From an uncultured Planctomycetota bacterium (GTDB taxonomy: Bacteria > Planctomycetota > Planctomycetia > Pirellulales > PNKZ01): a DNA stretch of 64,000 bases. The translations under genes and the position numbers were made by a program. Below the pieces are notes generated by a model. The model saw nothing but the letters and a program-made list of their open reading frames with translations. It ran no database searches and was not told where the DNA came from. This document shows positions 805 through 58,249 of the stretch, in pieces. Location: the NCBI GenBank assembly GCA_963708675.1, contig CAVPTO010000003.1, positions 4,740,719 to 4,804,718 of the forward strand. Direction: 5' to 3'. Numbering within the stretch: the first letter of the stretch is position 1; each line of letters opens with the position of its first letter.

Positions 805-832
805 AAGCCCACGGATGGCCATCCGTGGGCTT
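805..832. terminator. Perfect 28-nt palindrome between convergent genes, likely a bidirectional terminator hairpin
   Basis: aagcccacggatgg/ccatccgtgggctt lies 38 nt after the stop at 767 and 35 nt after the stop of the minus-strand gene at 867. The same CCCACGGA stem recurs at 8982-9003. Confidence 0.5.
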
Positions 833-866
833 AGCGCTCACCCGCGAGCGCCGCCATCCACCCTCT

Positions 867-1362: not shown

Positions 1363-2418
1363 TCACGCGTTCTTCTTCTCGCGGCTCTCGTCTTTTTTCT
1401 TGCGTAGCCGCTCGACGAACTGCTTCAAGTCCGGCGGCAGCGGCATGTGAAACGTCATCCGCTCGCGGGTCTGCGGATGATCGAACGACAGGCTCTCAGC
1501 GTGCAGCGCCAATCGCGGCGCGCCGGAACGTCGCTCGCCGTCGGCATGTCCATACACTTTGTCGCCACATACGGGATGCCCTGCCTCGGACAGTTGAATG
1601 CGAATCTGATGCGTGCGTCCGGTCTCGAGCCGACATTCGACGAGCGTATAGCCGTCGAACGTTTCGAGCGGACGCAGGTGCGTGACCGCCCGTTTGCCGA
1701 CGCCTTCCTCCTCGGTGCTTCCGCGACGACCGTCGCCTCGATCGCGCACAAGTTGCGACTCGATCGTCTGCGCTTTGACTTGCCCCTCGACGACGGCCAG
1801 ATATCGCCGCTCGGTTGTGTGTTGGCGGAACTGCTGCCCCAGCTCGCGCTCGGCAGGCACGGTGCGCGCGAAGATCATCACTCCACTCGTGTCGCGATCG
1901 AGCCGATGCACGGGCCGCACCGGCGGCGTGCGTGTCGGGGCCTTCCCGTCACGCGCGTTCTTCTGTGCTTGTCGACCTTGCGGACGCCGACCGCGGCCTC
2001 CTGCTTCCTTTTTGGCGATGATTCGCGGCAGCAGGTCTTCGACCGTCGGTTGTTGCTCCTTGCGCTTCGTCGGCCACGAACGTTCGAGCGCATGCCGCAC
2101 ACTCGTCATCCCCGACGGCTTTTCGATCACGACGAGATGCGCATCGAGATGGCGAACGTGGACGTCGTCTTCACGCGCCGGCGGCGCGGCCGGATGTTCG
2201 AGCACGCGCACGACGTCGGTGATCTTCAGCCGACGGGCGGAGTCGACGCACACGTTGCCGTTGAGCAGCACATGACGCGAGCCGATGAGCTGGCGCAGTT
2301 TCCCCCATGTCTTGCCGGGAAACCACTGCCGCATGGCGGTGGCTAAAGGTTGGTTGGCTTGGCTGGGCGCGACGCGATACATGTCGGCATGGCGCTGGCC
2401 TTTGTTGCTCTTCTTCAT
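1363..2418 (-). CDS. RluA-family 23S rRNA/tRNA pseudouridine synthase (RluD-like, with N-terminal S4-like domain)
   Basis: Catalytic motif HRLDRDTSGVMIFART. Downstream GRTHQIRIQL motif. The N-terminal S4-type segment includes the motif LLNGNV. Confidence 0.9.
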   Translation of the reverse strand: MKKSNKGQRHADMYRVAPSQANQPLATAMRQWFPGKTWGKLRQLIGSRHVLLNGNVCVDSARRLKITDVVRVLEHPAAPPAREDDVHVRHLDAHLVVIEKPSGMTSVRHALERSWPTKRKEQQPTVEDLLPRIIAKKEAGGRGRRPQGRQAQKNARDGKAPTRTPPVRPVHRLDRDTSGVMIFARTVPAERELGQQFRQHTTERRYLAVVEGQVKAQTIESQLVRDRGDGRRGSTEEEGVGKRAVTHLRPLETFDGYTLVECRLETGRTHQIRIQLSEAGHPVCGDKVYGHADGERRSGAPRLALHAESLSFDHPQTRERMTFHMPLPPDLKQFVERLRKKKDESREKKNA

Positions 2419-2491
2419 TGCCCCTGTAGCCTAGGTGCAAAACGCGCGAGCGTCCAGCGATACACGGGACCTTCGACTATGATGATCCTTC

Positions 2492-4339
2492 ATGCACAAC
2501 GAGCTCGATCACCTGCAACTGCTCGCCGACGTCGACACCTTGGCCGCACAGATGCGGACTTGGGCCGACGACGCGCCGAATTGGCCCCCGGCCCACGAGT
2601 CGCAGGCGCTCGTGCGACGTCTGCAACAACGAACCGACTCGCTGCGCGTACGGTTCGACGCGCCGCTGGTCGTGGCGACGCTCGGCGGCACCGGCACCGG
2701 CAAAAGCACGTTGGTCAACGCCCTCGTCGGCGCCGACGTGACCGAAACGGGCCGCCAACGGCCGACGACGCGTCAACCGGTGCTCGTCACACGCGCCGAC
2801 ATCACGCCCGAAATGCTCGGCATTGATCCGAGTGCGGTGCGTCACGTGACGTGCGAAGCGCCGGCGCTGGCCGACTTGGTGCTCATCGATTGCCCCGATC
2901 CCGACACGGCTGAGGACGCTGCCGACCCCGCGAGCAACATTGCTCGGCTGCGAGCGATCCTTCCGCATTGCGACGTGTTGCTCGTGACGACAACGCAGCA
3001 GAAGTATCGCAGTGCTCGCGTGTCGGCCGAGCTGGCGATGGCGGCCCCCGGAGCGCGACTTGTCTTCGTGCAGACGCATGCCGACACGGATGACGACATT
3101 CGCGACGACTGGCGGGCGTCGCTCGGCGAAGAATACGCGGCCGGCGAGATGTTCTTCGTCGATTCGTTGCAAGCGACCGCAGACGCCGAAGCCGGGTTGC
3201 AGCCACGCGGCGAATTCGGGCGACTCGTGCAGTTCCTTGCGCGTGAAATGGCTCCCGCCGCGGCGCATCGCATTCGTCGCGTGAACTTCCTCGATCTCGT
3301 CGAGCAGACGCTCGCAACGTGCGCCGAGCGCATCGACGCCGCGATGCCTGCCGTCGAACAACTCGAGACCGCGATCACCGAGCAACGCGCACGATTGGTC
3401 GACCGATTGTCGGGACAACTGCGCGATGACCTGCTGCAGCGGCGCCGCTCGTGGGAGCAGCGCATCCTCGGCGAAGTTGCGGGGCGCTGGGGGTTCAGCC
3501 CCTTCGCCGTGTTGCTGCGCGCGTATCAAGGGCTCGGCGGCTTGGTGTCGAGTGCCTTGCTCTTTCGCGTTCGCACGCCTGCACAGGCGGCATTGTGGGG
3601 CGGTTTAGAAGGTGCGCGGCGCTGGCGGGCGCATCGGTCACAACGAAGTGCCGAGCCGACCGAGCGCACGGCGGAATTCCGCTGGGAGCAGAACGAGCTG
3701 CGCACCGCGGCAATCATTCTCGACGGTTACGCTGCCGAGGCCGGTTTCTCGCGCGAAGAACTGACACCCGCCGCCCTCGAGCGCGAAGCCGACGGCGCGA
3801 GCGGCGATTTTCTCGCCCGCGCCTCGCAGGACTTGCAGCAGTTGATCACGCGTCGAGCGCAGCGGCTCACCGGCTTCGCCACGCGGATGGTGTACGAACT
3901 GTTGCTGGTCGCGATGCTCGTGATGTTGCTGTATCGCTTCGGCCGCAATTTCTTTTACGACTCGTGGCTCGCCGTCGAGTTGGGCTTGCAGCCTCAGGCG
4001 ACGCCGCTGCTCGGCACCGACTTTTTCATCGCCGCAGGCGCGATGCTGCTGTTGTGGTGTGGCCTGCTGTTGTGGCTATTCACCGGTCGGTTGCGACGTG
4101 GACTGAAGGCCGACGTCGTGCAACTCGCGCAGTCGTGGAACTCGCCGACGATCGCCGCGGCGCTAGCCGCGGGACTTGAGAGGCAGGCCCAGATCGCACG
4201 TGCGTGGCGTGAAGAGTTGAAGTTTCTGGAACAGCGCGTGACGTCGTTGAACGCGAGGATCACGCAGCCCGATTCGCGATTGGGGCATCGGACGGTGATC
4301 GCGCCCGCGAACATCCCCCGGCGACTCGCTGGGGGCTAA
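2492..4339 (+). CDS. Membrane-anchored P-loop GTPase (dynamin-like / HSR1-type GTP-binding domain) with long helical middle region
   Basis: Walker A/G1 motif GGTGTGKSTLVNALVG and G3-like LIDCPDPD. Long Arg/Glu/Leu-rich helical region. Two hydrophobic segments (MVYELLLVAMLVMLLY and FFIAAGAMLLLWCGLLLWLF) near the C-terminus. Confidence 0.7.
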   Translation: MHNELDHLQLLADVDTLAAQMRTWADDAPNWPPAHESQALVRRLQQRTDSLRVRFDAPLVVATLGGTGTGKSTLVNALVGADVTETGRQRPTTRQPVLVTRADITPEMLGIDPSAVRHVTCEAPALADLVLIDCPDPDTAEDAADPASNIARLRAILPHCDVLLVTTTQQKYRSARVSAELAMAAPGARLVFVQTHADTDDDIRDDWRASLGEEYAAGEMFFVDSLQATADAEAGLQPRGEFGRLVQFLAREMAPAAAHRIRRVNFLDLVEQTLATCAERIDAAMPAVEQLETAITEQRARLVDRLSGQLRDDLLQRRRSWEQRILGEVAGRWGFSPFAVLLRAYQGLGGLVSSALLFRVRTPAQAALWGGLEGARRWRAHRSQRSAEPTERTAEFRWEQNELRTAAIILDGYAAEAGFSREELTPAALEREADGASGDFLARASQDLQQLITRRAQRLTGFATRMVYELLLVAMLVMLLYRFGRNFFYDSWLAVELGLQPQATPLLGTDFFIAAGAMLLLWCGLLLWLFTGRLRRGLKADVVQLAQSWNSPTIAAALAAGLERQAQIARAWREELKFLEQRVTSLNARITQPDSRLGHRTVIAPANIPRRLAGG

Positions 4340-5703
4340 ATTGTCGTTGTCGGCCCGACGTAATCTCTCCCCGACCGCGCTGCGACGGCGATCATTACGA
4401 TGCCGATCGCGAGCACTACGGTCGCGGTGGTGTAGGTCCACATCGGCGAGTCGGCGAACAATCGCAACCCCACCACAGGCCCAACAATCCGCGCCAGCGA
4501 TGTGCAACTCTGCGCGAGCCCCAGAACGCCACCCTGCAACGCGGGGCTCGTTCGTCGCGAAATCAGAGATTGCAACGACGGATTCACGAATGCGAAGCCC
4601 GTGACTTCGACCGCCATCGCCACGAGCAACCAGCCAAAGCTTCCCCAGCTCGCGGCCATCGCCAACAGCGCGAAGCCGATCGTCGACGTGATCGCGCCGC
4701 CGACGGCCATCGTCGCTTCGCTGAGCCGCGTCGCGAGCCGTCGCACCAAGAAGCCTTGCGCCAACGTCAGCACGACGCCCAAGTACGCGAACGCCACGAA
4801 CACGACAAGCTGATCGGGCTCCGCCGTCGTCACGCCTTGCAACTTCGCGACGAGCCACGCCATCAGCGGCGACACGACCTCGCCACGTTCGTAGCGGCCG
4901 TAGATGTCTTCGATCTGCAGCGACAAGCTCGACTCGAACATGCCGAACGACAACACCGCCACGAACGACGTCGCCAGCAGCAGCACGATCGAAGGCGTGG
5001 CGAGCGCGGCCGCCCATGCCGATCGGGCCGATAGTGGTTGACTGTCGCGATGCACGGCCGTCTCGCCGCTGCCGGGCGTGTGCGACTCGGGCAGTTTGAA
5101 GATCGCCAACAGCAGCGCGACGCCCGACATCGCCGAGGCCGCGTACCCCGGCCATGGGCTGAGCGCATCGCCGCCGCCTGCCAACCGTGCAATCGCGCCG
5201 ATCGTCGGGCCTAGCGTAAAGCCCAAAGCGAACGCGGCGCCGATGAGTGCCATCCCTTTCGCCCGCTTTTCTTTCGTTGTCGTGTCGGCAATGTACGCCT
5301 GCGCGGTCGAGATCGTCGCCCCGGCGATGCCTGCACCGAGGCGCGCGATGAACAAACCTGCGAGGCTGTGCAGCACCGTCGCGACGCCGAACATCGCATA
5401 GAAAAATGTCGAGCCGACGAGCCCCATGATCAGGATCGGCCGACGCCCGAACCGGTCGGAGAGTCGCCCCCAAATCGGCAGAAACAAAAACTGCATTGCC
5501 GAGAAGCTCGCCATCAGCAGCCCGATGGTCCACCCGACCTGCTGGTCGCTCAGCCCGTGCGACTCGGCAAACCGCTTGCCATAGATCGGCAGCAGCGGCA
5601 ACACGATGCCGAAGCCCAGCAGGTCGATAAAGACCGTGAGAAAAATAACGAGCAACGACCCGCGAGTCGGCGGGCCGGGGCGTGCGGATGAAGAATTCGA
5701 CAT
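4336..5703 (-). CDS. MFS transporter (DHA1/tetracycline-resistance-like)
   Basis: Track ORF 4336..6630 is overextended. Start re-set to ATG 5703 (MSNSSSARPG...). The protein shows 12-TM-type hydrophobic periodicity and an MFS-type loop motif GRLSDRFGRRP. The region upstream of 5703 is antisense to the PaaK-like gene. Confidence 0.9.
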   Translation of the reverse strand: MSNSSSARPGPPTRGSLLVIFLTVFIDLLGFGIVLPLLPIYGKRFAESHGLSDQQVGWTIGLLMASFSAMQFLFLPIWGRLSDRFGRRPILIMGLVGSTFFYAMFGVATVLHSLAGLFIARLGAGIAGATISTAQAYIADTTTKEKRAKGMALIGAAFALGFTLGPTIGAIARLAGGGDALSPWPGYAASAMSGVALLLAIFKLPESHTPGSGETAVHRDSQPLSARSAWAAALATPSIVLLLATSFVAVLSFGMFESSLSLQIEDIYGRYERGEVVSPLMAWLVAKLQGVTTAEPDQLVVFVAFAYLGVVLTLAQGFLVRRLATRLSEATMAVGGAITSTIGFALLAMAASWGSFGWLLVAMAVEVTGFAFVNPSLQSLISRRTSPALQGGVLGLAQSCTSLARIVGPVVGLRLFADSPMWTYTTATVVLAIGIVMIAVAARSGRDYVGPTTTI

Positions 5704-5716
5704 GCGGTGTTTAGCC

Positions 5717-5732
5717 GGCATGTTTACATGCC
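5717..5732. promoter_or_regulatory. Palindrome in the divergent MFS / PaaK-like promoter region (possible operator or 5'-UTR hairpin)
   Basis: ggcatgt-tt-acatgcc has 7-bp perfect arms, lies 14 nt upstream of the MFS ATG, and directly follows a copy of the GTTTAGCCGGC 11-mer. Confidence 0.3.
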
Positions 5733-5796
5733 GTTCGGCGGGGCGGCTACATTTGGTTCCCTCGAACTCTAGCACGATCGCCCGTAAAATGAAGGC

Positions 5797-7092
5797 ATGT
5801 CTATCAGCACTTACGCCGATCGCCAGCGAATGGCGACGATGGAACCGGCCGAGCTCGAACAATATCAACTGTCGCGGCTCAATGGGCTGCTGCAAAAGAT
5901 TCTGCCGACCAACGGGTTTTATGCCGAAAAACTGGCCGAGGTGACGCTCCCGCTGGAGTCGCTCGATCAGTTGGAAGCGTTGCCGTACACGTTCAAAGAA
6001 GAACTGCTCGGCCCAGGCCAAGGTGGCGAAATGGCCGCGAACCTCACGTGGCCGATCGACCGGTACGTTCGCTTTCATCAAACATCGGGCACGCGTGGCC
6101 GGCCGCTGGTCGTGCTCGACACGCCCGACGATTGGCGATGGTGGTTGGAATGCTGGCAGTGGGTGCTCGACGCGGCAGGCATCGAGCCGACCGACCGCGT
6201 GGCGATGGCGTTCTCGTTCGGTCCGTTCATCGGATTCTGGACCGCCTCCGAAGCGTCGCTGGCGCGCGGATGCCAAATGATCCCGTGCGGCGGCATGAGC
6301 ACCCTGTCTCGACTCGAGTTGATTCGCACGAGCGGCGCGACGGTCGTGTTCTGCACTCCGAGTTATGCGCTGCATCTGGCCGAAGTTGCGGCCGAGCGGA
6401 AGATCGACGTCGCAGAGTGGCGCGTCCGCAAACTCATTCTGGCGGGCGAGGCCGGTGGCAGCGTCCCCGCGACTCGCGATCGCATTGAATCGAGTTGGCA
6501 AGCAACCGTCGTCGATCACGGCGGCGCGACCGAGATCGGAGCTTGGGGCTTCAGCGATCCGCAGCGTAAAGGACTTCATCTGTTGGAGACCGAATTCATC
6601 GGCGAGTTTCTTTCCGTCGAGACCGGGCAACCGGCCGGCGAAGGGGAACTTGCCGAGTTGGTGATCACATCGCTCGGCCGCGCCGGGTCACCCGTGATTC
6701 GCTATCGCACCGGCGATTTGGTTCGCCCCGTGTGGCAGCACGGGCAGGCATCGCCGTTCGTGCTGTTGGATGGCGGCATCCTCGGCCGCACCGACGACAT
6801 GCTCATCATTCGCGGCGTGAATGTCTTTCCGACGGCGCTGGAACAGATTCTGCGAAGCTTTCCCGAGGTGCTCGAGTACCGCATGATCGCGACCAAGATC
6901 GGCGAGATGGATCAACTGAACATCGAAGTCGAAGATCGCCTCGACCAACCGATGCGCATCGCCGAAGAGGTGCAAGTGCGACTCGGTCTGCGGGTCGAGG
7001 TCAAATGCGTGCCGACGGGATCGCTGCCACGATTCGAAGGGAAAGGGCAGCGATTCATCGACCGCCGCGGGCTGCTCAACATCGAAAAGTAG
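5797..7092 (+). CDS. Phenylacetate-CoA ligase family adenylate-forming enzyme (PaaK / coenzyme F390 synthetase-like)
   Basis: The N-terminal region contains LSRLNGLL. AMP-binding P-loop equivalent HQTSGTRGRP. C-terminal DDMLIIRGVNVFP motif typical of PaaK-like ligases. Confidence 0.85.
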   Translation: MSISTYADRQRMATMEPAELEQYQLSRLNGLLQKILPTNGFYAEKLAEVTLPLESLDQLEALPYTFKEELLGPGQGGEMAANLTWPIDRYVRFHQTSGTRGRPLVVLDTPDDWRWWLECWQWVLDAAGIEPTDRVAMAFSFGPFIGFWTASEASLARGCQMIPCGGMSTLSRLELIRTSGATVVFCTPSYALHLAEVAAERKIDVAEWRVRKLILAGEAGGSVPATRDRIESSWQATVVDHGGATEIGAWGFSDPQRKGLHLLETEFIGEFLSVETGQPAGEGELAELVITSLGRAGSPVIRYRTGDLVRPVWQHGQASPFVLLDGGILGRTDDMLIIRGVNVFPTALEQILRSFPEVLEYRMIATKIGEMDQLNIEVEDRLDQPMRIAEEVQVRLGLRVEVKCVPTGSLPRFEGKGQRFIDRRGLLNIEK

Positions 7093-7112
7093 GACGGTCT
7101 GCGAATTCACCG

Positions 7113-7201
7113 CTGTAGGGAACGCCCTCCGTGGCGTTCCGCAGTGCGAGTGGATGCGCTGTCCGCAGTTCACGGAACGCCACGGAGGGCGTTCCCTACA
7201 G
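7113..7201. repeat. Nested-palindrome intergenic element (29-nt perfect inverted arms, each arm itself a hairpin)
   Basis: Left arm ctgtagggaacgccctccgtggcgttccg (7113-7141) and its exact reverse complement (7173-7201) are separated by 31 nt. Each arm contains ggaacgcc/ggcgttcc. Confidence 0.9.
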
Positions 7202-7222
7202 AATCCGACACGGCGTAGAACG

Positions 7223-8545
7223 ATGAACAACGATGTGCGAAACGCCGACGTCATCATTCTTGGCGGTGGAGCGGCAGGGCTCGAGGCTGCTTCGGCATTG
7301 GCTCGTTCGGGGTTAAACGTTGCCATTCTCGAAGCCCGTGACCGGCTCGGTGGCCGCATCGATACGCGCCACGCCGCCGATGATGCGAAAATCGTCGTCG
7401 AACGTGGAGCGGAGTTCGTTCACGGTCGCGCTCGCGAAACGTTCGATCTCATCAAGGCCGGCAAACTCGACGTCGTGAAACTCGACGAAGAGCACCTACG
7501 ATTCAATGGGCAATGGAGTGACTGTGGCCAATGGTGCGACGACGATTCTTGGGAGCAGGTCGAAGAGTTGATGTCGCGGCTTGAGCGCGAAGAGTCGGTC
7601 GACGAAACGTTCGCCGACTTTCTCGCCCGTGAGGGTCGCGACCTTTCGCCGTCAGTGCGGGCGATGGCGATCGCGTTTGTCGAAGGGTTCAACGCTGCCG
7701 ATCAACACAAGATCGGCACGCTTGGGCTCGTCGAATCGCAGCGCGAGTCGGAACGCATCGAGGCCGATACGTCGTTTCGTTTACCCGGCGGTTACGATCA
7801 ACTGGTGCGCGTGCTGGTCGAGAGTTTGCCCCTGAACCGCGTCGCGATTCACACCGGCACAGTCGTCACGAACGTGCGATGGAGCGCCGGGCATGTCGAG
7901 GTCGAGACGGTTACGTCTACCGGCGAACGCTCGACGTTCACAGCGCGGGCAGCGATCGTCACCCTGCCGCTCGGCGTGTTGAAAGCGCCGGTTGGCTCGC
8001 CCGGCGCCGTGCGCTTCGAGCCCGAACTCACCGAGAAACGCGAGTCGCTCGATCATCTGATCATGGGGGACGTCGTGAAGGTGGTGATGCGATTTCGCAC
8101 GGCGTTTTGGCGCGACTCGCATCCGAAGTTGTCGTTCGTGCACGCGCTCGACGAGGCGATACCGACGTGGTGGACGCAATCACCGATCGACGTGCCCCTG
8201 CTCACCTGCTGGGCCGGCGGAGCGCAGGCAGCAAAGCTAGTGACGATGACAGACGCCGCGATCGTCGACGTCGCTTTGCAGGTCGCGTCGCGCATCTTCC
8301 ATCGCAGCGGTCTGCGCGAGTTGCTCGTCACGGCTGACGTCAGCGACTGGCATTGCGATCCGTTCAGCCGCGGCGCGTACAGCTACGTCGCCGTCGGCGG
8401 TGTGCACGCGGCAGACGAACTCGCTCGTCCCATCGCCGACACGCTCTATTTCGCAGGCGAAGCCACTCACGCCGGCCTCTGCGGCACCGTCGCCGGAGCG
8501 GTGGCCAGCGGATATCGCGCGGCCAAAGAGTTGCTTGACCGTTGA
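7223..8545 (+). CDS. FAD-dependent amine oxidase (flavin monoamine/polyamine oxidase family)
   Basis: Start re-set to ATG 7223; the track start 7154 lies inside the palindromic element. Dinucleotide-binding motif DVIILGGGAAGLEAA followed by LEARDRLGGRI. C-terminal FAGEATH motif. Confidence 0.85.
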   Translation: MNNDVRNADVIILGGGAAGLEAASALARSGLNVAILEARDRLGGRIDTRHAADDAKIVVERGAEFVHGRARETFDLIKAGKLDVVKLDEEHLRFNGQWSDCGQWCDDDSWEQVEELMSRLEREESVDETFADFLAREGRDLSPSVRAMAIAFVEGFNAADQHKIGTLGLVESQRESERIEADTSFRLPGGYDQLVRVLVESLPLNRVAIHTGTVVTNVRWSAGHVEVETVTSTGERSTFTARAAIVTLPLGVLKAPVGSPGAVRFEPELTEKRESLDHLIMGDVVKVVMRFRTAFWRDSHPKLSFVHALDEAIPTWWTQSPIDVPLLTCWAGGAQAAKLVTMTDAAIVDVALQVASRIFHRSGLRELLVTADVSDWHCDPFSRGAYSYVAVGGVHAADELARPIADTLYFAGEATHAGLCGTVAGAVASGYRAAKELLDR

Positions 8546-15876: not shown

Positions 15877-16120
15877 CGCGACGACGCAGGCCGATAAGAT
15901 CGGTTCCTACAGCACAACAGATCGTCGCGGAATAATCGGGGTTTTGATGCTTTTTGGTTTCCGACGCAGGACCGCTAGAACCCGCACCTCTTACCGGACC
16001 CGCACGACTGCGATAACCTGAGAACCCGCGTGCTGGCATCGACCGCGATTGAGCCGCGACGCGCAGCGAGCGCTCCGCTGGCGCGTCGCGGCTATCAAAA
16101 ATGAGAGAATGAAACGAACT

Positions 16121-16248
16121 CCTCTCCCTTTGGGAGAGGGTGGCGGCGCAGCCGCCGGGTGAGGGCGGGTAGAAGTAGATTACGATCACCACTTCTACCC
16201 GCCCTCATCCGCCGCTTCGCGGCACCTTCTCCCGGTGGGAGAAGGGTT
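16121..16248. repeat. Composite nested-palindrome element, copy A (family also at 43750, 48484, 53199)
   Basis: Order of parts: cctctccc-ttt-gggagagg, then gtgagggcggg, a central loop, cccgccctca, then ccttctccc-ggt-gggagaagg. Ends 53 nt upstream of the yjbQ ATG. Confidence 0.9.
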
Positions 16249-16301
16249 CGAACGACACTCTGAATATCAATAAACCAAAGTCAGCAACCAAAAACGCCCC
16301 C

Positions 16302-16724
16302 ATGAAATCCTTCACCGACTACCTCACCATCACCGTCCCCACCGAGCGCGGGTTCGAGAACATCACGCCACGCGTCGCCGACGCCATTCGCAAAAGCGGC
16401 GTGCAAGAAGGGATCGTGCTCGTCAACTCGATGCACATCACGGCCAGCGTGTTCATCAACGACGACGAATCTGGCCTGCACCACGACTTCGAGAAGTGGC
16501 TCGAGCAGCTGGCCCCGTTCAATCCCGACCCGAACGTCTACCATCACAACCGCACGGGCGAAGACAACGCCGACGCGCACCTGAAAAGGCAGATCATGGG
16601 ACGCGAGGTCGTGTGCGCGATCACCAAGGGCAAGCTCGACTTCGGCCCGTGGGAACAAATCTTCTACGGCGAGTTCGATGGCCGCCGCGCCAAGCGCGTG
16701 CTGATCAAGGTGCTCGGCGAGTGA
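16302..16724 (+). CDS. YjbQ/UPF0047 family protein (secondary thiamine-phosphate synthase-type)
   Basis: 140 aa matching UPF0047 throughout: [55 protein letters not shown]. Confidence 0.9.
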
Positions 16725-16725
16725 A
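16669..16725 (+). repeat. 57-bp direct repeat, copy 1 (functional 3' end of yjbQ)
   Basis: 54 of 57 nt are identical to 17601-17657, counted by eye. Encodes ...[17 protein letters not shown]. Confidence 0.95.
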
Positions 16726-16760
16726 AAGCTGACGCTCGATAACGCACAAGGGCAGATGCG

Positions 16761-17558
16761 GTGAAATCATTCCATGTGCCGATTTTCAGTAGCCAAATTC
16801 TGCGGATGCCTCATGATGCCGAGGAGGCTCAATACGTATTCGATAGTTTTTGGAGCAAGGGACCAGTAGGCGAACGCCCATACTTGTACGCAGATATTAT
16901 CTTGGACTCCGGAATCTACCTGAGGCATGTCGAGTTTGACGGCAGCGGGATTGGGGTTCGCTGTGGCGTTGGCACAAGTCAGCGGGTGGCTGATTGTCCC
17001 GAACTGTTCGGAAGCCGTGCTATTCGTTGGTGTCCGATACGGAGTTTTTCTCATGGGCAGCGATACGACTGGGCTACTTCGTCGGACCGCATGCTATTTG
17101 CCAAAGAGCAAGGGCAGCAAATCCGGCTCTGCGGGTTGCCTATGCCGCCGGCTCTCGTGTCGTTGATCGAAGCTGGAATGTGGAACCATCCCGGTGACGA
17201 TGTGATCAAAGAGATAATCCCCTTTCTGAAAGAGCCGGTGGATTTCTTATCCGTAGATTCGATGGAATCCGAGTCGTCGGGTCATTTGGCAGACTTCCCC
17301 GATACTTCGTCATTGTTTCATGAAATGAGAGGTGGCGGTTCTGTCGTAGTCCCTGACCTGCCGTGGCGTGATGTGAACAAGTCGTTTTTCATCGCCGTGA
17401 ATCGCATTCCCGGAGACGACATCGGCATAGCACTCGACTTTCGAACTGGTGACGAATCTGATCCAAGCGTAATTGCGAGCGATTGGAGCGATGGAACGTG
17501 CAAATGGAGGATGGTATCCGACTCGTTGTCGAGCTTCCTTCAGCAAATTGGCCTTTAG
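16761..17558 (+). CDS. SUKH/SMI1-KNR4-like protein on a low-GC insertion
   Basis: GTG start. The C-terminal half resembles the SUKH immunity fold: LPMPPALVSLIEAG ... IAVNRIPGDDIGIALDFRTGDESDPSVIASDW ... WRMVSDSLSSFLQQIGL. A 100-nt sample has 46 G+C, against 62 in the flanking yjbQ. Confidence 0.55.
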   Translation: MKSFHVPIFSSQILRMPHDAEEAQYVFDSFWSKGPVGERPYLYADIILDSGIYLRHVEFDGSGIGVRCGVGTSQRVADCPELFGSRAIRWCPIRSFSHGQRYDWATSSDRMLFAKEQGQQIRLCGLPMPPALVSLIEAGMWNHPGDDVIKEIIPFLKEPVDFLSVDSMESESSGHLADFPDTSSLFHEMRGGGSVVVPDLPWRDVNKSFFIAVNRIPGDDIGIALDFRTGDESDPSVIASDWSDGTCKWRMVSDSLSSFLQQIGL

Positions 17559-17600
17559 TATCAGTCATGCATTTCGAACTCCTTCAAATAGACCGATGCT

Positions 17601-17657
17601 GCGAGTTCGACGGCCGCCGCGCCAAGCGCGTGCTGATTAAGGTGATCGGCGAGTGAA
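17601..17657 (+). repeat. 57-bp direct repeat, copy 2 (relic yjbQ 3' end that carries the permease start)
   Basis: Would encode ...[17 protein letters not shown]. Its GAGTGAA contains the GTG start (17653) of the permease overlapping the relic TGA. Confidence 0.95.
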
Positions 17658-19014
17658 CAAAGCGGACCACCGTCACATCGTCGCCGATGATGACAATGGC
17701 GCACCCGAACGACAGTTGTCGTTGTTCGACACGACGTCGATCATCGTCGGCATCATCATCGGCTCGGGATTGTATCGCACTAGCCCGTTGATCGCTTCAA
17801 GCGTCGAGTCGACCGCGTGGCTGTTGGGCGTCTGGATCGTCGGCGGCGTGCTCGCGCTCATGGGCGCGCTCTGCTACGCAGAGTTGTCGACGACGTACCC
17901 GGTCGAAGGGGGCGACTTTGTTTTCTTGTCGCGGGCTTACGGGCGACGCCTCGGCTTCGTTTACGCCTGGTGCCAGTTGTGGGTCATTCGGCCCGGCTCG
18001 ATCGGCGCGATCGCGCTCGTGTTCGCCGCATATCTGCAGCAACTCTTTCCTGCCATGCAACTACCGCCCGCGTTCCTCTCCGTCGCGGCCGTCGTGACAA
18101 TGGCGATCGTGAACATGCTTGGCGTGCGTCAGGGTAAGTGGACGCAGAATGTGCTCTCCGCCGCGAAGGTCGTCGGCCTGCTCGCGGTCGTCGTTCTTGG
18201 ACTCACCGCGCCTTCGCCCGAAGCGTCACCACAAGTCGCCTCAAACGACAACCTCCCGCTCGCGTTGATTCTCGTGCTCTTCACGTATAGTGGATGGAAC
18301 GAGATGCCCAACGTCGCGGCCGAGGTGCGCGACCCACGCCGAAACATTCTGCGAGCGCTCGTCCTTGGCGCGTCGGCCGTCACGGCGATCTACGTGCTCA
18401 CCACGCTCGCGTTCGTTCACGCGTTGGGGCTCGAAGGCGTTCGCGTGAGCAGTGCCGTCGCCGCCGATACGGTTTCACGCAGCATGGGCCCGTGGGGCGC
18501 TCGCGCCGTCAGCGTGCTCGTCTGCTTGTCGGCCTTAGGCGCCATGAATGGCATGACGATGACTGGTTCGCGCGTCTACTACGCCTTCGGTCGTCAGCAC
18601 CCGATGTTCGCTTGGCTGGGCCGCTGGAGCCCGCGTTTCGGCACGCCCGTCGCTTCGCTGGCCACCGAAGCCGCAATCACGTCCGTGACGATTCTCGTGC
18701 TCGCCGCCGTCTACGGGGCCGATCGCGACGTCTTCGGCCAACTCGTGACGTTCACCGCGCCGCTGTTCTGGCTGTTTCTCGCGCTGGCGACCACAAGCCT
18801 GTTCCTGTTGCGACGATCGGACCCATCGCGCGAGCGCCCGTTTCGTGTGCCGTTCTACCCGCTGACTCCCGCGTTGTTCGCCCTCGTTTGCGGTTGGATG
18901 ACGTGGTCGGCGCTGCTCTACGCGTGGAGCAACCGCTCGTGGGAAGCGCTTTGGGCGATCATCGCGCGATGCGCAGGAATCGTCATGGCTTTATGCGAAC
19001 GTCGCGGCGAATGA
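17653..19014 (+). CDS. APC-superfamily amino acid permease
   Basis: 453 aa with ~12 hydrophobic segments. N-terminal GIIIGSGLYRTSP motif typical of APC transporters. GTG start. Confidence 0.9.
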   Translation: MNKADHRHIVADDDNGAPERQLSLFDTTSIIVGIIIGSGLYRTSPLIASSVESTAWLLGVWIVGGVLALMGALCYAELSTTYPVEGGDFVFLSRAYGRRLGFVYAWCQLWVIRPGSIGAIALVFAAYLQQLFPAMQLPPAFLSVAAVVTMAIVNMLGVRQGKWTQNVLSAAKVVGLLAVVVLGLTAPSPEASPQVASNDNLPLALILVLFTYSGWNEMPNVAAEVRDPRRNILRALVLGASAVTAIYVLTTLAFVHALGLEGVRVSSAVAADTVSRSMGPWGARAVSVLVCLSALGAMNGMTMTGSRVYYAFGRQHPMFAWLGRWSPRFGTPVASLATEAAITSVTILVLAAVYGADRDVFGQLVTFTAPLFWLFLALATTSLFLLRRSDPSRERPFRVPFYPLTPALFALVCGWMTWSALLYAWSNRSWEALWAIIARCAGIVMALCERRGE

Positions 19015-19017
19015 ACA

Positions 19018-19091
19018 GCGCTCGGCGCGGGTCTCCAGACCCCGCCGCTCAGCGCCGATATCGGCGGGGTCTGGAGACCCGCGCCGAGCGC
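19018..19091. repeat. Nested-palindrome intergenic element between convergent genes (30-nt perfect arms)
   Basis: gcgctcggcgcgggtctccagaccccgccg (19018-19047) and its reverse complement (19062-19091). Each arm holds gggtct/agaccc. Starts 4 nt after the permease stop, so it is a likely bidirectional terminator. Confidence 0.85.
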
Positions 19092-42721: not shown

Positions 42722-43924
42722 TCAGCGTTGGAAGATCGGCAGATAATTGTTCGGCATCTGCAACACGATGCAGGCCATCGCCGTGCCGTACTCGGGGCAG
42801 ATTGAATCCATCCACGAGCCGTCGTCACGCTGCCGGACGATCAGTTCATCGCGAATGGCTGGATACCATCGCACCCAATGATCGCCGCCGGCATGCCACA
42901 TCGCTTGGACCGCGTAGTAGTGGCCATAGAAGTAATGGCTCTCGCGATTGAACACGCCGCCGCGCGGAATGCTTTCCATGAGATACTTCAGCCCCTTGTC
43001 GATCTCGGGGCCTTCGTAGATGCCGGCGCTGTACAACGCGACGACGCCGGCGGCCGAACGCGGGAACGCGCTTTGACCACCTTGGATCATGTACATAAAG
43101 CCGCCGTCGGCGTTCTGGCTTCGCTTAACGTACTGGACACACTTATCAATCGTGTCGTGCGAGACAAAGATGCCTGCATTGCGTGCCGCCCGAAGCGCCA
43201 TGACCTGGCAGATGGTAACCGAGATATCGGCATCGCGGCGCACGGGCTGATACCGCCATCCGCCGTCGGCGTTCTGCGTGTTTTCGATCAGCGCGACGGC
43301 CTTGGCCAACTTCTCGCGGACGTCGGTGCGTTGCGTCATGCCGTAAGCTTCCGCCAGGAACAGCGTCGCGAAGCCGTGCCCGTACATCGGCCCGTGACTG
43401 CCCGAGCCTGCGACGTTGATGAATCCACTTTCTTGCGTGTTCTCGAGAATGTATTCGACGCAGCGTTCGACGTTCGCCCCGTAAGGCCCGCGACCCGGCG
43501 TGCTGCCGCCTGCCATGAACGCCATACCCGCCAGTCCACACACGGCCACGTCGCGCGCGAACCCGCCGCTACCGAACGAACCGTCGTCGTGCTGTTGCGC
43601 TGCCAGCAACGTCAACCCGCGACCACTCGCGCGATCGGCTTCGGGAGTGACGAGTTCGACCGCCGTGCGCTCGGGGTCGTCCTGCACCGCGGCGGGCGCC
43701 GGAGCGACGGTGAGTAATACGGCGATAAATAGGGGCGCGGCGCCAACCCAACCCTTCTCCCTTCGGGAGAAGGTGGCCGAAGGCCGGATGAGGGAGCGCC
43801 GCCCAGGTGAAGGTTCACAACAAGCGCAATGTCGCACGCGATTGAACCCGCCCTCACCCGGCTCGCTGCGCTCGCCACCCTCTCCCGAAGGGAGAGGGGT
43901 TCCTATTGTGACGACTCCGTTCAC
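42722..43924 (-). CDS. Prenyltransferase/squalene-oxidase-repeat (alpha/alpha-toroid) protein; start codon unresolved
   Basis: Repeated QxxDGSF/GGW motifs (QQHDDGSFG, NADGGWRY, NADGGFMY, RDDGSWM). The signal-like AAPLFIAVLLTVAPAPAAV has no canonical start just upstream. In-frame GTGs exist only at 43924 (GTGA-coupled) and 43837, both within or beyond repeat copy B. Confidence 0.75.
   Translation of the reverse strand: MNGVVTIGTPLPSGEGGERSEPGEGGFNRVRHCACCEPSPGRRSLIRPSATFSRREKGWVGAAPLFIAVLLTVAPAPAAVQDDPERTAVELVTPEADRASGRGLTLLAAQQHDDGSFGSGGFARDVAVCGLAGMAFMAGGSTPGRGPYGANVERCVEYILENTQESGFINVAGSGSHGPMYGHGFATLFLAEAYGMTQRTDVREKLAKAVALIENTQNADGGWRYQPVRRDADISVTICQVMALRAARNAGIFVSHDTIDKCVQYVKRSQNADGGFMYMIQGGQSAFPRSAAGVVALYSAGIYEGPEIDKGLKYLMESIPRGGVFNRESHYFYGHYYAVQAMWHAGGDHWVRWYPAIRDELIVRQRDDGSWMDSICPEYGTAMACIVLQMPNNYLPIFQR
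43750..43901. repeat. Composite nested-palindrome element, copy B
   Basis: Order of parts: cttctccc-ttc-gggagaag, gtggccgaaggccggatgaggg, a central region, cccgccctcaccc, then ccctctccc-gaa-gggagagggg. The left inner arm is degenerate. Confidence 0.9.
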
Positions 43925-48483: not shown

Positions 48484-48615
48484 AACCCTTCTCCCTTTGG
48501 GAGAAGGTGCCGCGAAGCGGCGGATGAGGGCGGGTTGAATCGGTAGGCGCTTACCAATTTAACCCGCCCTCACCCGGCGACTCCGTCGCCACCCTCTCCC
48601 AAAGGGAGAGGGGTT
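48484..48615. repeat. Composite nested-palindrome element, copy C
   Basis: Order of parts: cttctccc-ttt-gggagaag, ggatgagggcgggtt, a loop, aacccgccctcaccc, then ccctctccc-aaa-gggagagggg. Fills the spacer between the stop at 48626 and the start at 48455. Confidence 0.9.
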
Positions 48616-48625
48616 CATGTTTGTC

Positions 48626-53198: not shown

Positions 53199-53328
53199 AA
53201 ACCCCTCTCCCTTTGGGAGTGGGTGGCGAGCAACGCGAGCCGGGTGAGGGCGGGTTATGGTGGGACGCGGCTCGCGCCACGACGCACCCTCATCCGGCCT
53301 TCGGCCACCTTCTCCCCGAGGGAGAAGG
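53199..53328. repeat. Composite nested-palindrome element, copy D
   Basis: Order of parts: cctctccc-ttt-gggagtgg, gtgagggcgggtt, a loop, ccctcatccggccttcggccacc, then ttctcccc-gag-ggagaagg. Its right half is the reverse complement of the left half of copy B. Confidence 0.9.
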
Positions 53329-58122: not shown

Positions 58123-58249
58123 GAAGAATCACCATCATTTGCTCGGTTAGCCGCGACGCGCCAGCGGAGCGATCGGCTTCGCCTCGCGGCTAACCAACGT
58201 AATCTCGCAGCCCGTAGCAGAATGCTCTCCAATCGTACACCATGACCCG

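Follow-up and report, generated by a model that had tools for sequence, protein, structure and literature searches.

A 57-nt duplication of the yjbQ 3' end flanks a low-GC, yjbQ-linked gene encoding a predicted divergent SUKH-type protein in a Planctomycetota genome

How a gene of foreign composition can come to lie between two genes that overlap in close relatives, and leave both of them intact, is the question raised by a locus of an uncultured Planctomycetota bacterium. The window, which is the whole 64-kb stretch of DNA that was analysed, contains on its + strand an intact yjbQ gene (UPF0047; 16302..16724, 140 aa), which matches PF01894 (E=5.8e-36) and TIGR00149 (E=2.4e-30) and is the resident gene, and an intact gene of an APC-family amino-acid permease (17653..19014, +, 453 aa; PF13520 E=3.5e-53). 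Between them lies ORF265 (16761-17558, +), which has a GTG start and encodes 265 aa, as an earlier note on this DNA had described. The repeat finder recovers the direct repeat of 57 nt that the same note had counted at 16669-16725 and 17601-17657, with 54/57 identical positions (95% identity), and local alignment of the yjbQ tail with the 400 nt 3' of ORF265 gives a score of 99, against a mean of 17.1 and a maximum of 28 in 200 shuffles. Copy 1 (16669..16725, +) is the working 3' end of yjbQ plus one base past its stop codon, while copy 2 (17601..17657, +; AAGGTGATCGGCGAGTGA) is a relic of the yjbQ tail that holds the GTG start of the permease and the sequence just upstream of it. In the GAGTGA of copy 2 the GTG at 17653 begins the permease and overlaps the relic TGA. 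The mismatches between the copies fall at repeat positions 11, 38 and 45. Two of the three are synonymous (GAT/GAC and ATC/ATT), as already described, and the third (CTC/ATC) changes Leu to Ile, this being the one difference between the peptide of copy 2 and the yjbQ tail.

The insert proper (16726..17600, +) is 875 nt long and is built by a 35-nt spacer, ORF265, which is its sole ORF, and a 42-nt tail. The full interval from yjbQ to ORF265 (16725..16760, +) measures 36 nt and is homologous in other yjbQ-ORF loci, with a conserved ...AGGxCAGATGCC(A/G)TG, while the resemblance of the post-ORF265 tail (17559..17600, +) to other loci is limited to its first ~12 nt. The right-hand non-homologous junction is at 17600/17601. 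Site and RNA scans find no promoter, terminator or known RNA in the insert, including the 36-nt spacer, and yjbQ, ORF265 and the permease gene are probably co-transcribed. No tRNA gene is present within the 64-kb window. Ten neighbouring ORFs were scanned between 7.1 and 25.4 kb, and their products in this interval include amine oxidase, DAHP synthase, hydrolase, HIRAN, PDZ, MORN, cupin and beta-helix proteins, helicase and peptidase; none has an integrase, transposase or toxin domain, which agrees with what had been read from the sequence before. A contig misjoined through the short repeat is extremely improbable, even though repeats can mislead assemblers and an exact-protein look-up finds no record elsewhere of the window's yjbQ and permease products. 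Three sites distinguish the copies and no identical run between mismatches exceeds 26 bases, the yjbQ-spacer-ORF order at the left junction recurs in five other assemblies, and P0001, which is identical to the ORF265 product (100% identity), comes from an independent Logan assembly.

The composition of the insert is foreign. Its GC content is 0.519, against a mean of 0.617 (sd 0.025) for all 875-nt windows of the 64 kb, so that it is the lowest-GC 875 nt of the window (0.02% of windows are that low), and the trinucleotide deviation, calculated in 875-nt windows across the 64 kb, also peaks there. ORF265 has the lowest GC among 46 long ORFs and a GC3 of 0.57 vs a mean of 0.72, and in five hosts the GC3 of ORF homologues is 0.49-0.57 vs 0.63-0.88 for the adjoining yjbQ. 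The low GC reported earlier holds in comparison with the whole window, in which the insert is the minimum of GC and the maximum of k-mer deviation, while the extreme value of the 100-nt sample on which that report relied does not.

An unoccupied site is demonstrated by L016/L017, a relative about 93% identical, in which yjbQ-GTGA-permease occurs without an intervening gene; this is the arrangement that the earlier note had proposed as ancestral. The yjbQ of L016 is 94.9% identical to that of the window in nucleotides and 97% in amino acids over its whole length, and the closest permease homologue, P0179, is 93% identical in amino acids, with equal length and start. In BLASTN, positions 230-660 of L016 correspond to 16294-16724 of the window and positions 605-2034 to 17601-19027, with identities of 94.9% and 90.3%, and the two blocks overlap by exactly the repeat, while window positions 16726-17600 have no counterpart in L016. 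The overlap of the upstream stop with the permease start in a GTGA is present in L018 too and is thus conserved in three genomes. In L018, the next relative, ORF265 is absent and another gene, with no flanking repeat, occupies the yjbQ-permease junction.

The empty site does not settle the direction of the change, since L016 would look no different, with an empty site and copy-1 alleles, had a deletion between the repeats removed the gene there. L016 does carry the copy-1 allele at all three sites that differ between the copies, which fits a crossover close to the repeat's 3' end. It is possible, then, that the ancestor already had yjbQ-ORF265-relic-permease and that L016 lost ORF265 by homologous deletion between the 57-bp repeats, a reading to which we give a tentative minority weight. 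The yjbQ-ORF pair is old elsewhere (dS above 1), with a yjbQ-ORF-Uma2 trio that is syntenic in L004 and L023, where the ORF looks vertically inherited, and when the window, L016, L018 and the distant ORF-bearing loci are compared by parsimony, both histories need two events. Against an old residence, the copies differ at 3/57 sites, while a neutral relic dating from the split between the window and L016 (yjbQ dS = 0.21) should show about 6-7.5, L018 has no ORF265 and holds a different gene at the junction, and the composition of ORF265 is still far from that of its host. An older date would moreover change the timing alone, as an insertion with duplication of the tail is needed anyway. The Poisson test of relic age is weak (P about 0.06-0.18), and gene conversion could make a relic look younger than it is; the shortage of differences between the copies leans weakly towards a gain after the window/L016 split. 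Mismatches between the two yjbQ genes are evenly spread, and the search for a mosaic block in the window yjbQ relative to L016 gives no signal; the repeat itself offers three informative sites, too few for a mosaic to show. On these same three sites an origin of one copy from a diverged yjbQ, as the earlier note suggested, is no more than possible.

The position of ORF265 is not arbitrary, as had been assumed at first. All close full-length homologues are directly downstream of a yjbQ orthologue and are separated from it by a homologous spacer: the order yjbQ, 27-36-nt gap and ORF is found in the window, L001, L004, L005, L006-L011 and L023, which make six contexts. The flanks are visible on both sides and differ in 5/6 of these contexts, the L023 contig beginning inside yjbQ. 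In a DNA alignment of five loci, collinearity extends from the yjbQ tail across the spacer and into the ORF, and similarity ends about 12 nt past the ORF stop. A more distant homologue in L012 (45% identity) is not beside yjbQ and sits in a defence and transposase neighbourhood. A link between SUKH-type genes and yjbQ was not found in the literature searched. The duplication is not conserved in the distant relatives, as local alignments compared with shuffles find no significant yjbQ-tail repeat 3' of the ORF in L001, L004, L005 and L006, and the join to yjbQ nt 367 at the right junction is unique to the window. The short matches seen there (a 23-nt LVKTFGE* in L004, fainter ones in L001, L005 and L006) do not outscore shuffled sequences and are not supported as relics. 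The second yjbQ 3' of the ORF in L001, considered as a longer duplication, is a 32%-identical paralogue and was rejected. Pair identities are 88% for yjbQ and 69% for the ORF between L004 and L006, and 75% and 77% between L001 and L006, but incongruence of the ORF and yjbQ trees was not accepted as proof of independent transfer, as unequal rates can explain it and the best ORF match of L004 is L006.

Since ORF homologues lie directly 3' of yjbQ with a homologous spacer, the left junction is homologous, and yjbQ is most likely the homology anchor for recombination; a homologous left junction also explains why the ORF stays constantly 27-36 nt behind yjbQ. The left side is shared with other yjbQ-ORF loci and the right side joins unrelated sequence, which is the pattern of an anchored insertion. 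The preferred explanation, which we hold to be probable though well short of certain, is that ORF265 belongs to the accessory genes exchanged horizontally, moves together with yjbQ and was gained here via yjbQ-anchored recombination. The operon before insertion would have had the yjbQ stop overlapping the permease start (GTGA). Donor DNA from a relative with yjbQ-spacer-ORF would have recombined with the resident yjbQ, forming the homologous left junction, and at the right end a non-homologous join would have been made 57 nt before the yjbQ stop. The least elaborate routes would be the integration of a circle of ~932 bp by one crossover in the yjbQ tail, or an unequal exchange. Copy 1 would then complete yjbQ and copy 2 would keep the start codon of the permease and its upstream sequence. 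The insertion is tolerable because the 57-bp duplication serves both neighbours, and the duplicated tail would persist because the permease start lies in it. Homology-facilitated insertion, one of the two routes that the earlier note had suggested, thus appears the best reading of the comparisons, to which the six yjbQ-adjacent contexts with their homologous 27-36-nt spacer now add. At two sites the relic has the states that other ORF-linked yjbQ tails typically show; it differs from copy 1 at only 3/57 sites, so if it was donated, the source would have to be a close, unsampled relative. No donor of ORF265 was found, the nearest homologue in the donor search being 74% identical in amino acids with a dS above 1. 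Insertions with one anchored and one illegitimate end, which leave a displaced 3' fragment, have precedent at T6SS, Rhs and CDI loci (PMC5361080). Taken as a whole, the feature is genuine, though as a case of gene gain or loss it is fairly ordinary.

ORF265 is a genuine gene under purifying selection, with a dN/dS of 0.14-0.18 (about 0.15), and its AlphaFold model has a pLDDT of 92.6. The N-terminal domain (16761..17111, +; aa 1 to about 115-117) is an orphan alpha/beta domain that is modelled confidently (pLDDT about 90), has zero Pfam matches in 9 members and no significant fold match in PDB or BFVD, and is restricted to the full-length relatives and P0029, about ten proteins. It had gone unrecognised as a separate unit in the earlier note. 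The full-length family is very rare, with about ten proteins among 5.8 billion; a scan of the genome collection finds it in the L004 contig only, and that of the metagenome collection finds one short relative. Two candidate relationships were rejected: an origin of the N-terminal domain from yjbQ (both begin with MKSF and hold EFDG, and L004/L005 have a 15-nt match), as BLASTP gives no hit at E<=100, and a match to mandelate racemase in a PDB-sequence profile search (E=8e-4, 58-residue motif), which was judged spurious.

The C-terminal domain (17112..17558, +; aa about 118-120 to 265 plus stop) is a predicted divergent SUKH/SMI1_KNR4-like domain. It has 284 cluster representatives at E<=1e-3 (down to 1e-42), nearly all aligned over aa 105-265, and its relatives are widespread stand-alone proteins of about 150 aa; a profile scan finds no matches of the family in viral contigs. 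SMI1_KNR4 (SUKH-1) is matched by 41/80 C-domain homologues at E<=1 and by 8/80 at E<=1e-3 (best 4.7e-8), SUKH_6 by 4/80, and no further family recurs. Neither ORF265 nor the C-domain alone matches a Pfam or NCBIfam family at E<=1, the SUKH profiles (PF09346, PF14568 and relatives) included, and the Foldseek comparison with the SUKH fold is not significant (YobK 2prv at E=1.3, TM 0.27). The SUKH assignment made earlier for the C-terminal half is thus sustained at the level of the family and holds transitively, via its members, as judged from profile matches, while a Pfam match of ORF265 itself and a confirmation by Foldseek were not obtained. The AF2 model of the C-domain (pLDDT 93.1) has helices, a 4-strand meander and a C-terminal helix, and the SUKH core is described as four helices, a beta-hairpin and a 4-stranded beta-meander (PMC3113570), so the agreement is one of secondary-structure order only, the fold search being not significant. 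The best explanation of these data is that ORF265 combines, in one fused protein, an orphan N-terminal domain with a divergent domain of SUKH/SMI1_KNR4 type whose predicted function is protein binding. In L013 the stand-alone relative sits in a run of small unannotated genes, and a rescan of its neighbours gives no immunity-family Pfam matches.

In polymorphic toxin systems, SUKH proteins serve as immunity proteins (Zhang et al. 2011, PMC3113570), and the superfamily also includes protein binders not related to immunity, such as Syd and Smi1/Knr4 (PMC3113570). Toxin domains are absent in the window, L001, L004, L005, L006, L012 and L023, that is in zero of seven contexts of full-length homologues, so as an immunity gene ORF265 would be at best an orphan, its upstream gene being yjbQ in six contexts. 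Its most likely function is protein binding or neutralisation, be it as an immunity-type orphan or as an adaptor associated with YjbQ. The second option leads to a doubtful alternative, in which ORF265 is an operon partner whose N-terminal or SUKH-type domain binds or regulates YjbQ and the repeat is the scar of an operon rearrangement. The 27-36-nt gap with a conserved spacer in six contexts, the purifying selection on ORF265 and the existence of the non-immunity binders are consistent with it, as is the restriction of the yjbQ linkage to the two-domain form, the stand-alone C-domain relatives of L013 and L022 having no yjbQ nearby. However, the family is very rare, the two closest relatives retain yjbQ without ORF265, L012 has the gene without yjbQ, among defence and transposase genes, and the composition is foreign in every host; the use of yjbQ as a recombination anchor explains the linkage equally well.

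Integrases typically leave imperfect direct repeats, some tens of bases long, that restore the target gene's 3' end, and the repeats of this locus have this form. They could be attL and attR of a site-specific mini-cassette that targets the yjbQ 3' end and brings a replacement tail, with its recombinase encoded elsewhere or as the stump of a larger island whose integrase was lost, and the ORF is found at this end in six contexts and the same junction holds another gene in L018. This is nevertheless very unlikely, as the insert and the ten ORFs of 7.1-25.4 kb contain no integrase, excisionase or transposase, the repeat finder detects no attC-like inverted repeats at the insert ends, and there is no significant repeat of the yjbQ tail after the ORF in the four distant loci, nor a repeat at the extra gene of L018. 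The integrase of L004, 2.8 kb from the homologue, was rejected as a mobiliser, since it adjoins tRNA-Lys and belongs to a separate island. Unlikely as well, and offered as speculation, is that the 932-bp unit (spacer, ORF265, 42-nt tail and a single yjbQ-tail copy) represents a minimal mobile cassette. Having no recombinase of its own, it would be excised as a circle between the 57-bp repeats and would re-enter related genomes at the yjbQ tail, its N-terminal domain possibly acting on YjbQ. If this were true, a conserved housekeeping gene would be a dedicated landing pad, and an action of the N-terminal domain on YjbQ would give the first functional handle on the UPF0047 family.

With yjbQ-anchored gain as the preferred reading, the locus is a clean natural example with both occupied and empty sites in hand. 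It shows insertion into a translationally overlapping gene pair with neither gene damaged, the duplicated overlap ending one and starting the other, and a rare accessory gene kept beside a conserved gene that can guide its transfer by homology. The two-domain proteins, with an orphan N-terminal domain and a predicted divergent SUKH-type domain, define an unannotated family, and their strict linkage to yjbQ is a testable lead on the physiological role of YjbQ/UPF0047.

Among known systems, the SUKH / SMI1_KNR4 superfamily (Pfam PF09346, with B. subtilis YobK, PDB 2PRV, as an example) is similar in that the C-domain family of about 150 aa matches SMI1_KNR4 repeatedly and in that the modelled C-domain fits the described core in its secondary-structure order. 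ORF265 differs from it in lying below Pfam detection, with a fold search that is not significant, in its extra orphan N-terminal domain and in its tie to yjbQ, and from SUKH immunity proteins in that no toxin gene adjoins its homologues in any context. Integron cassettes are also single promoterless ORFs in the orientation of the host transcription unit, and a circle of ~0.9 kb is conceivable, but here there is no attC-like imperfect palindrome, attI or intI, and recombination would take place in a segment of the target gene itself. Islets of tyrosine integrases likewise have foreign low-GC DNA between imperfect direct repeats, with the 3' end restored to the target gene, but here there is one cargo gene and no integrase, and the repeat is absent at other loci. 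The C-terminal displacement of Rhs, CDI and T6SS loci, whose orphan modules are attributed to homology-facilitated illegitimate recombination (Kirchberger et al. 2017, PMC5361080), shares with this locus a conserved upstream gene as anchor, an incoming small downstream gene and a displaced 3' fragment of the anchor left behind. The logic is thus already known from toxin-immunity loci and is seen here at a housekeeping gene: the anchor is of housekeeping type and not a toxin, there is no array of successive modules, and the displaced tail is 57 nt long, encodes the same peptide but for one Leu/Ile, and holds the start of the next gene.

The 3' end of yjbQ is found twice in the window, as a 57-nt direct repeat at 16669-16725 (copy 1) and 17601-17657 (copy 2, the relic), which a repeat finder returns at 95% identity, as had been claimed. 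Local alignment of the yjbQ tail with the 400 nt after ORF265, the 265-aa gene between the copies (16761-17558, forward strand), scores 99, against a mean of 17.1 and a maximum of 28 in 200 shuffles. As the earlier note had it, copy 1 is the real end of an intact yjbQ (16302-16724; PF01894, E=5.8e-36; TIGR00149) and the GAGTGA of copy 2 supplies the GTG start, at 17653, of an intact 453-aa APC permease (PF13520, E=3.5e-53). If translated, copy 2 would give a 17-residue stretch of the yjbQ tail, and the two copies differ at three positions, of which GAT/GAC and ATC/ATT are indeed synonymous and CTC/ATC exchanges Leu for Ile. From within the end of ORF265, a TTG-initiated frame of 57 codons (17483-17656) continues across the relic in the former yjbQ frame. 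Its expression is unlikely, but ribosomes on it would stop at the permease start.

The predicted ancestral junction is present in close relatives. The best homologue of the permease (P0179; 93% identical, with equal length and start) is encoded in L016 and L017, which are independent assemblies, and in both the yjbQ stop overlaps the permease start in GTGA and nothing lies between. Two BLASTN blocks join the window to L016 (16294-16724 with 230-660, 94.9%; 17601-19027 with 605-2034, 90.3%), and their overlap in L016 is exactly the repeat. At the three sites that separate the copies, L016 agrees throughout with copy 1; it differs from both copies at repeat positions 17 and 57. L018, a more distant syntenic relative (yjbQ 86%, permease 67%, PDZ and MORN genes upstream as in the window), carries at the same junction a different gene (5327-6004, GC 0.54), which encodes a 225-aa membrane/coiled-coil protein with hydrophobic segments at both ends and a charged, coiled-coil-like middle. 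This gene has a GTGA stop/start overlap on each side and no repeat around it. The yjbQ/permease junction appears prone to extra genes; a further permease orthologue (L021, 63%) does not adjoin yjbQ.

Other differences lie close by. L016 has an extra gene for a 285-aa methyltransferase-like protein (2239-3096) between the permease and a cupin gene, which the window lacks, so that two differences in gene presence fall within 2 kb. A long near-perfect hairpin with arms of ~37 nt lies just 3' of the permease (19018-19091), and MITE- or REP-like palindromes recur between genes of the window in two families, of ~135 nt (16116-16250, 48484-48616, 43750-43902 and 53200-53328; copies 77-91% identical) and ~44 nt (16052-16094 and 58148-58192). 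The palindromic copy upstream of yjbQ is missing in L016, which has there a different palindrome related to window 805-847.

The low G+C reported between the copies holds over the full 875 nt: at 0.519 it is the minimum among all 875-nt windows of the 64 kb (mean 0.617, sd 0.025), and the trinucleotide deviation of the insert is the highest. Of 46 long ORFs, ORF265 is the poorest in GC, and its GC3 is 0.57 where the mean is 0.72. Across five hosts compared, the ORF keeps GC of ~0.49-0.52 and GC3 of 0.49-0.57, and the adjoining yjbQ has GC3 of 0.63-0.88. An assembly artefact that created the arrangement is unlikely, because the two repeat copies are not identical, the same left junction recurs in five other assemblies and an identical ORF265 product is found in an independent Logan assembly.

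Full-length homologues of at least 56% identity each follow a yjbQ orthologue at a distance of 27-36 nt wherever the context is readable (L001, L004, L005, L006-L011, which form one locus, and L023). The genes before yjbQ and after the ORF vary among those contexts in which both sides can be seen. When DNA of five loci is aligned, the yjbQ tail, a conserved spacer and the ORF run on collinearly, and similarity is gone ~12 nt past the ORF stop. The order yjbQ-ORF-Uma2 is common to L004 and L023 (Uma2 72% identical, ORF 57%); this Uma2-family (DUF820, endonuclease-like) gene directly follows the ORF (L004:6921-7601, L023:1191-2162), and the L023 copy has an internal N-terminal duplication. L001 carries a second yjbQ-family gene (6956-7372), 32% identical to the first and 167 nt downstream of the ORF, which gives the order yjbQ-ORF-yjbQ. 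No yjbQ was found near the stand-alone C-domain relatives in the loci checked (L013, L022), nor near the most distant full-length homologue (45% identical) in L012:1-11989. The latter lies among small unannotated genes, with QatB/QueC/TatD-type genes, which resemble the Qat defence system, on one side and a Transposase_mut gene on the other. ORF265 is tied to yjbQ, a link invisible from the window alone. A functional partnership of ORF265 with YjbQ is possible and is compatible with yjbQ serving as a recombination anchor.

The left junction is homologous. The same spacer and ORF follow the yjbQ stop in the window as in distant genomes, and a fragment captured at random would not both begin exactly at a donor yjbQ stop and land exactly at that of the recipient. 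The window yjbQ is 95% identical to that of L016 over its full length, with evenly spread, mostly third-position differences, and is the resident gene. At the right junction, which is non-homologous, the 42nd base past the ORF265 stop codon meets yjbQ nt 367. A site-specific, att-flanked cassette was also considered; against it, there is no recombinase in the insert or in the ten neighbouring ORFs scanned (7.1-25.4 kb), which bears out the reported lack of an integrase or transposase, the integrase at L004 is part of a tRNA-Lys island, and the other yjbQ-ORF loci compared (L001, L004, L005 and L006) have no significant repeat.

ORF265 may instead be ancestral and lost in L016 by deletion between the repeats. 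With a yjbQ dS of 0.21 between window and L016, a neutral relic as old as their split would differ from copy 1 at ~6-7.5 sites, and the three differences observed lean towards a gain after the split (Poisson estimate P ~0.06, or ~0.18 with the last 20 nt taken as constrained). If gained, the gene came from an unsampled donor, since its nearest homologue is 74% identical with dS >1.

The permease start codon and the AAGGTG before it lie inside the yjbQ coding tail, so that only an insertion duplicating this tail would keep both genes intact, and the duplication seems functionally needed. The overlap is kept in L016, and a GTGA overlap at the permease start is also found in L018. yjbQ, ORF265 and the permease are probably transcribed together, because neither promoter-like nor terminator-like sites are present in the insert, nor is there any Rfam match.

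ORF265 is a real gene, with dN/dS of 0.14-0.18 against four homologues and an AlphaFold model (30 sequences) of pLDDT 92.6 and pTM 0.86, and its product has two domains. The N-terminal domain (residues 1 to ~115) has no Pfam match and is restricted to ~10 full-length relatives and the fragment P0029 (158 aa, from a 597-bp ENA contig), which is 62% identical over aa 1 to ~100, continues into MORN repeats in place of the SUKH-like domain and is either a genuine domain swap or a chimeric short contig. The C-terminal domain (residues ~120-265) matches a large family of mostly stand-alone proteins of ~150 aa (284 cluster representatives at E<=1e-3, nearly all spanning aa 105-265 alone), with fusions to S1 or DinB_2 domains also seen. 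The SUKH-like character claimed for this half is supported at the family level by profile matches: 41 of 80 members match SMI1_KNR4 (SUKH-1) at E<=1 and eight at E<=1e-3 (best 4.7e-8), four match SUKH_6, and no other family recurs. Searched against PDB sequences, the profile of the family alignment A5 matches mandelate racemase (E ~8e-4, 58 residues, PwlD...GdD.aIaLDYR), which is probably a chance motif resemblance. ORF265 represents a divergent SUKH family with a new architecture.

The favoured role of the SUKH-type domain is to bind or neutralise a protein. Immunity-type protection against a toxin from other cells is a tentative reading, and a YjbQ-linked adaptor is an unlikely one. Since none of the full-length homologues has a toxin gene beside it, the term "immunity protein" is an analogy and not a finding.

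The repeats described in the earlier note are confirmed, and its interpretation is largely right as to architecture and ancestral junction; its account of the origin was incomplete, as it lacked the yjbQ linkage and the homology anchor. A circularised fragment of ~932 bp, made of the yjbQ tail, the spacer, the ORF and 42 nt, could enter by a single crossover and leave a direct repeat of the anchor end, and an unequal exchange would have the same outcome. Copy 1 is L016-like and the relic has GAC and ATC (Ile), as in most ORF-linked yjbQ tails, a pattern compatible with a crossover close to the yjbQ stop codon, which three sites cannot prove. To account for displaced 3' fragments at T6SS, Rhs and CDI loci, the general model put forward is classical homology-facilitated illegitimate recombination at one end (PMC5361080). 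The ORF265 locus has in common with these loci a displaced 3' fragment of the anchor gene (PMC5361080), and its anchor-guided insertion with a displaced tail would be a new variant of this known process.
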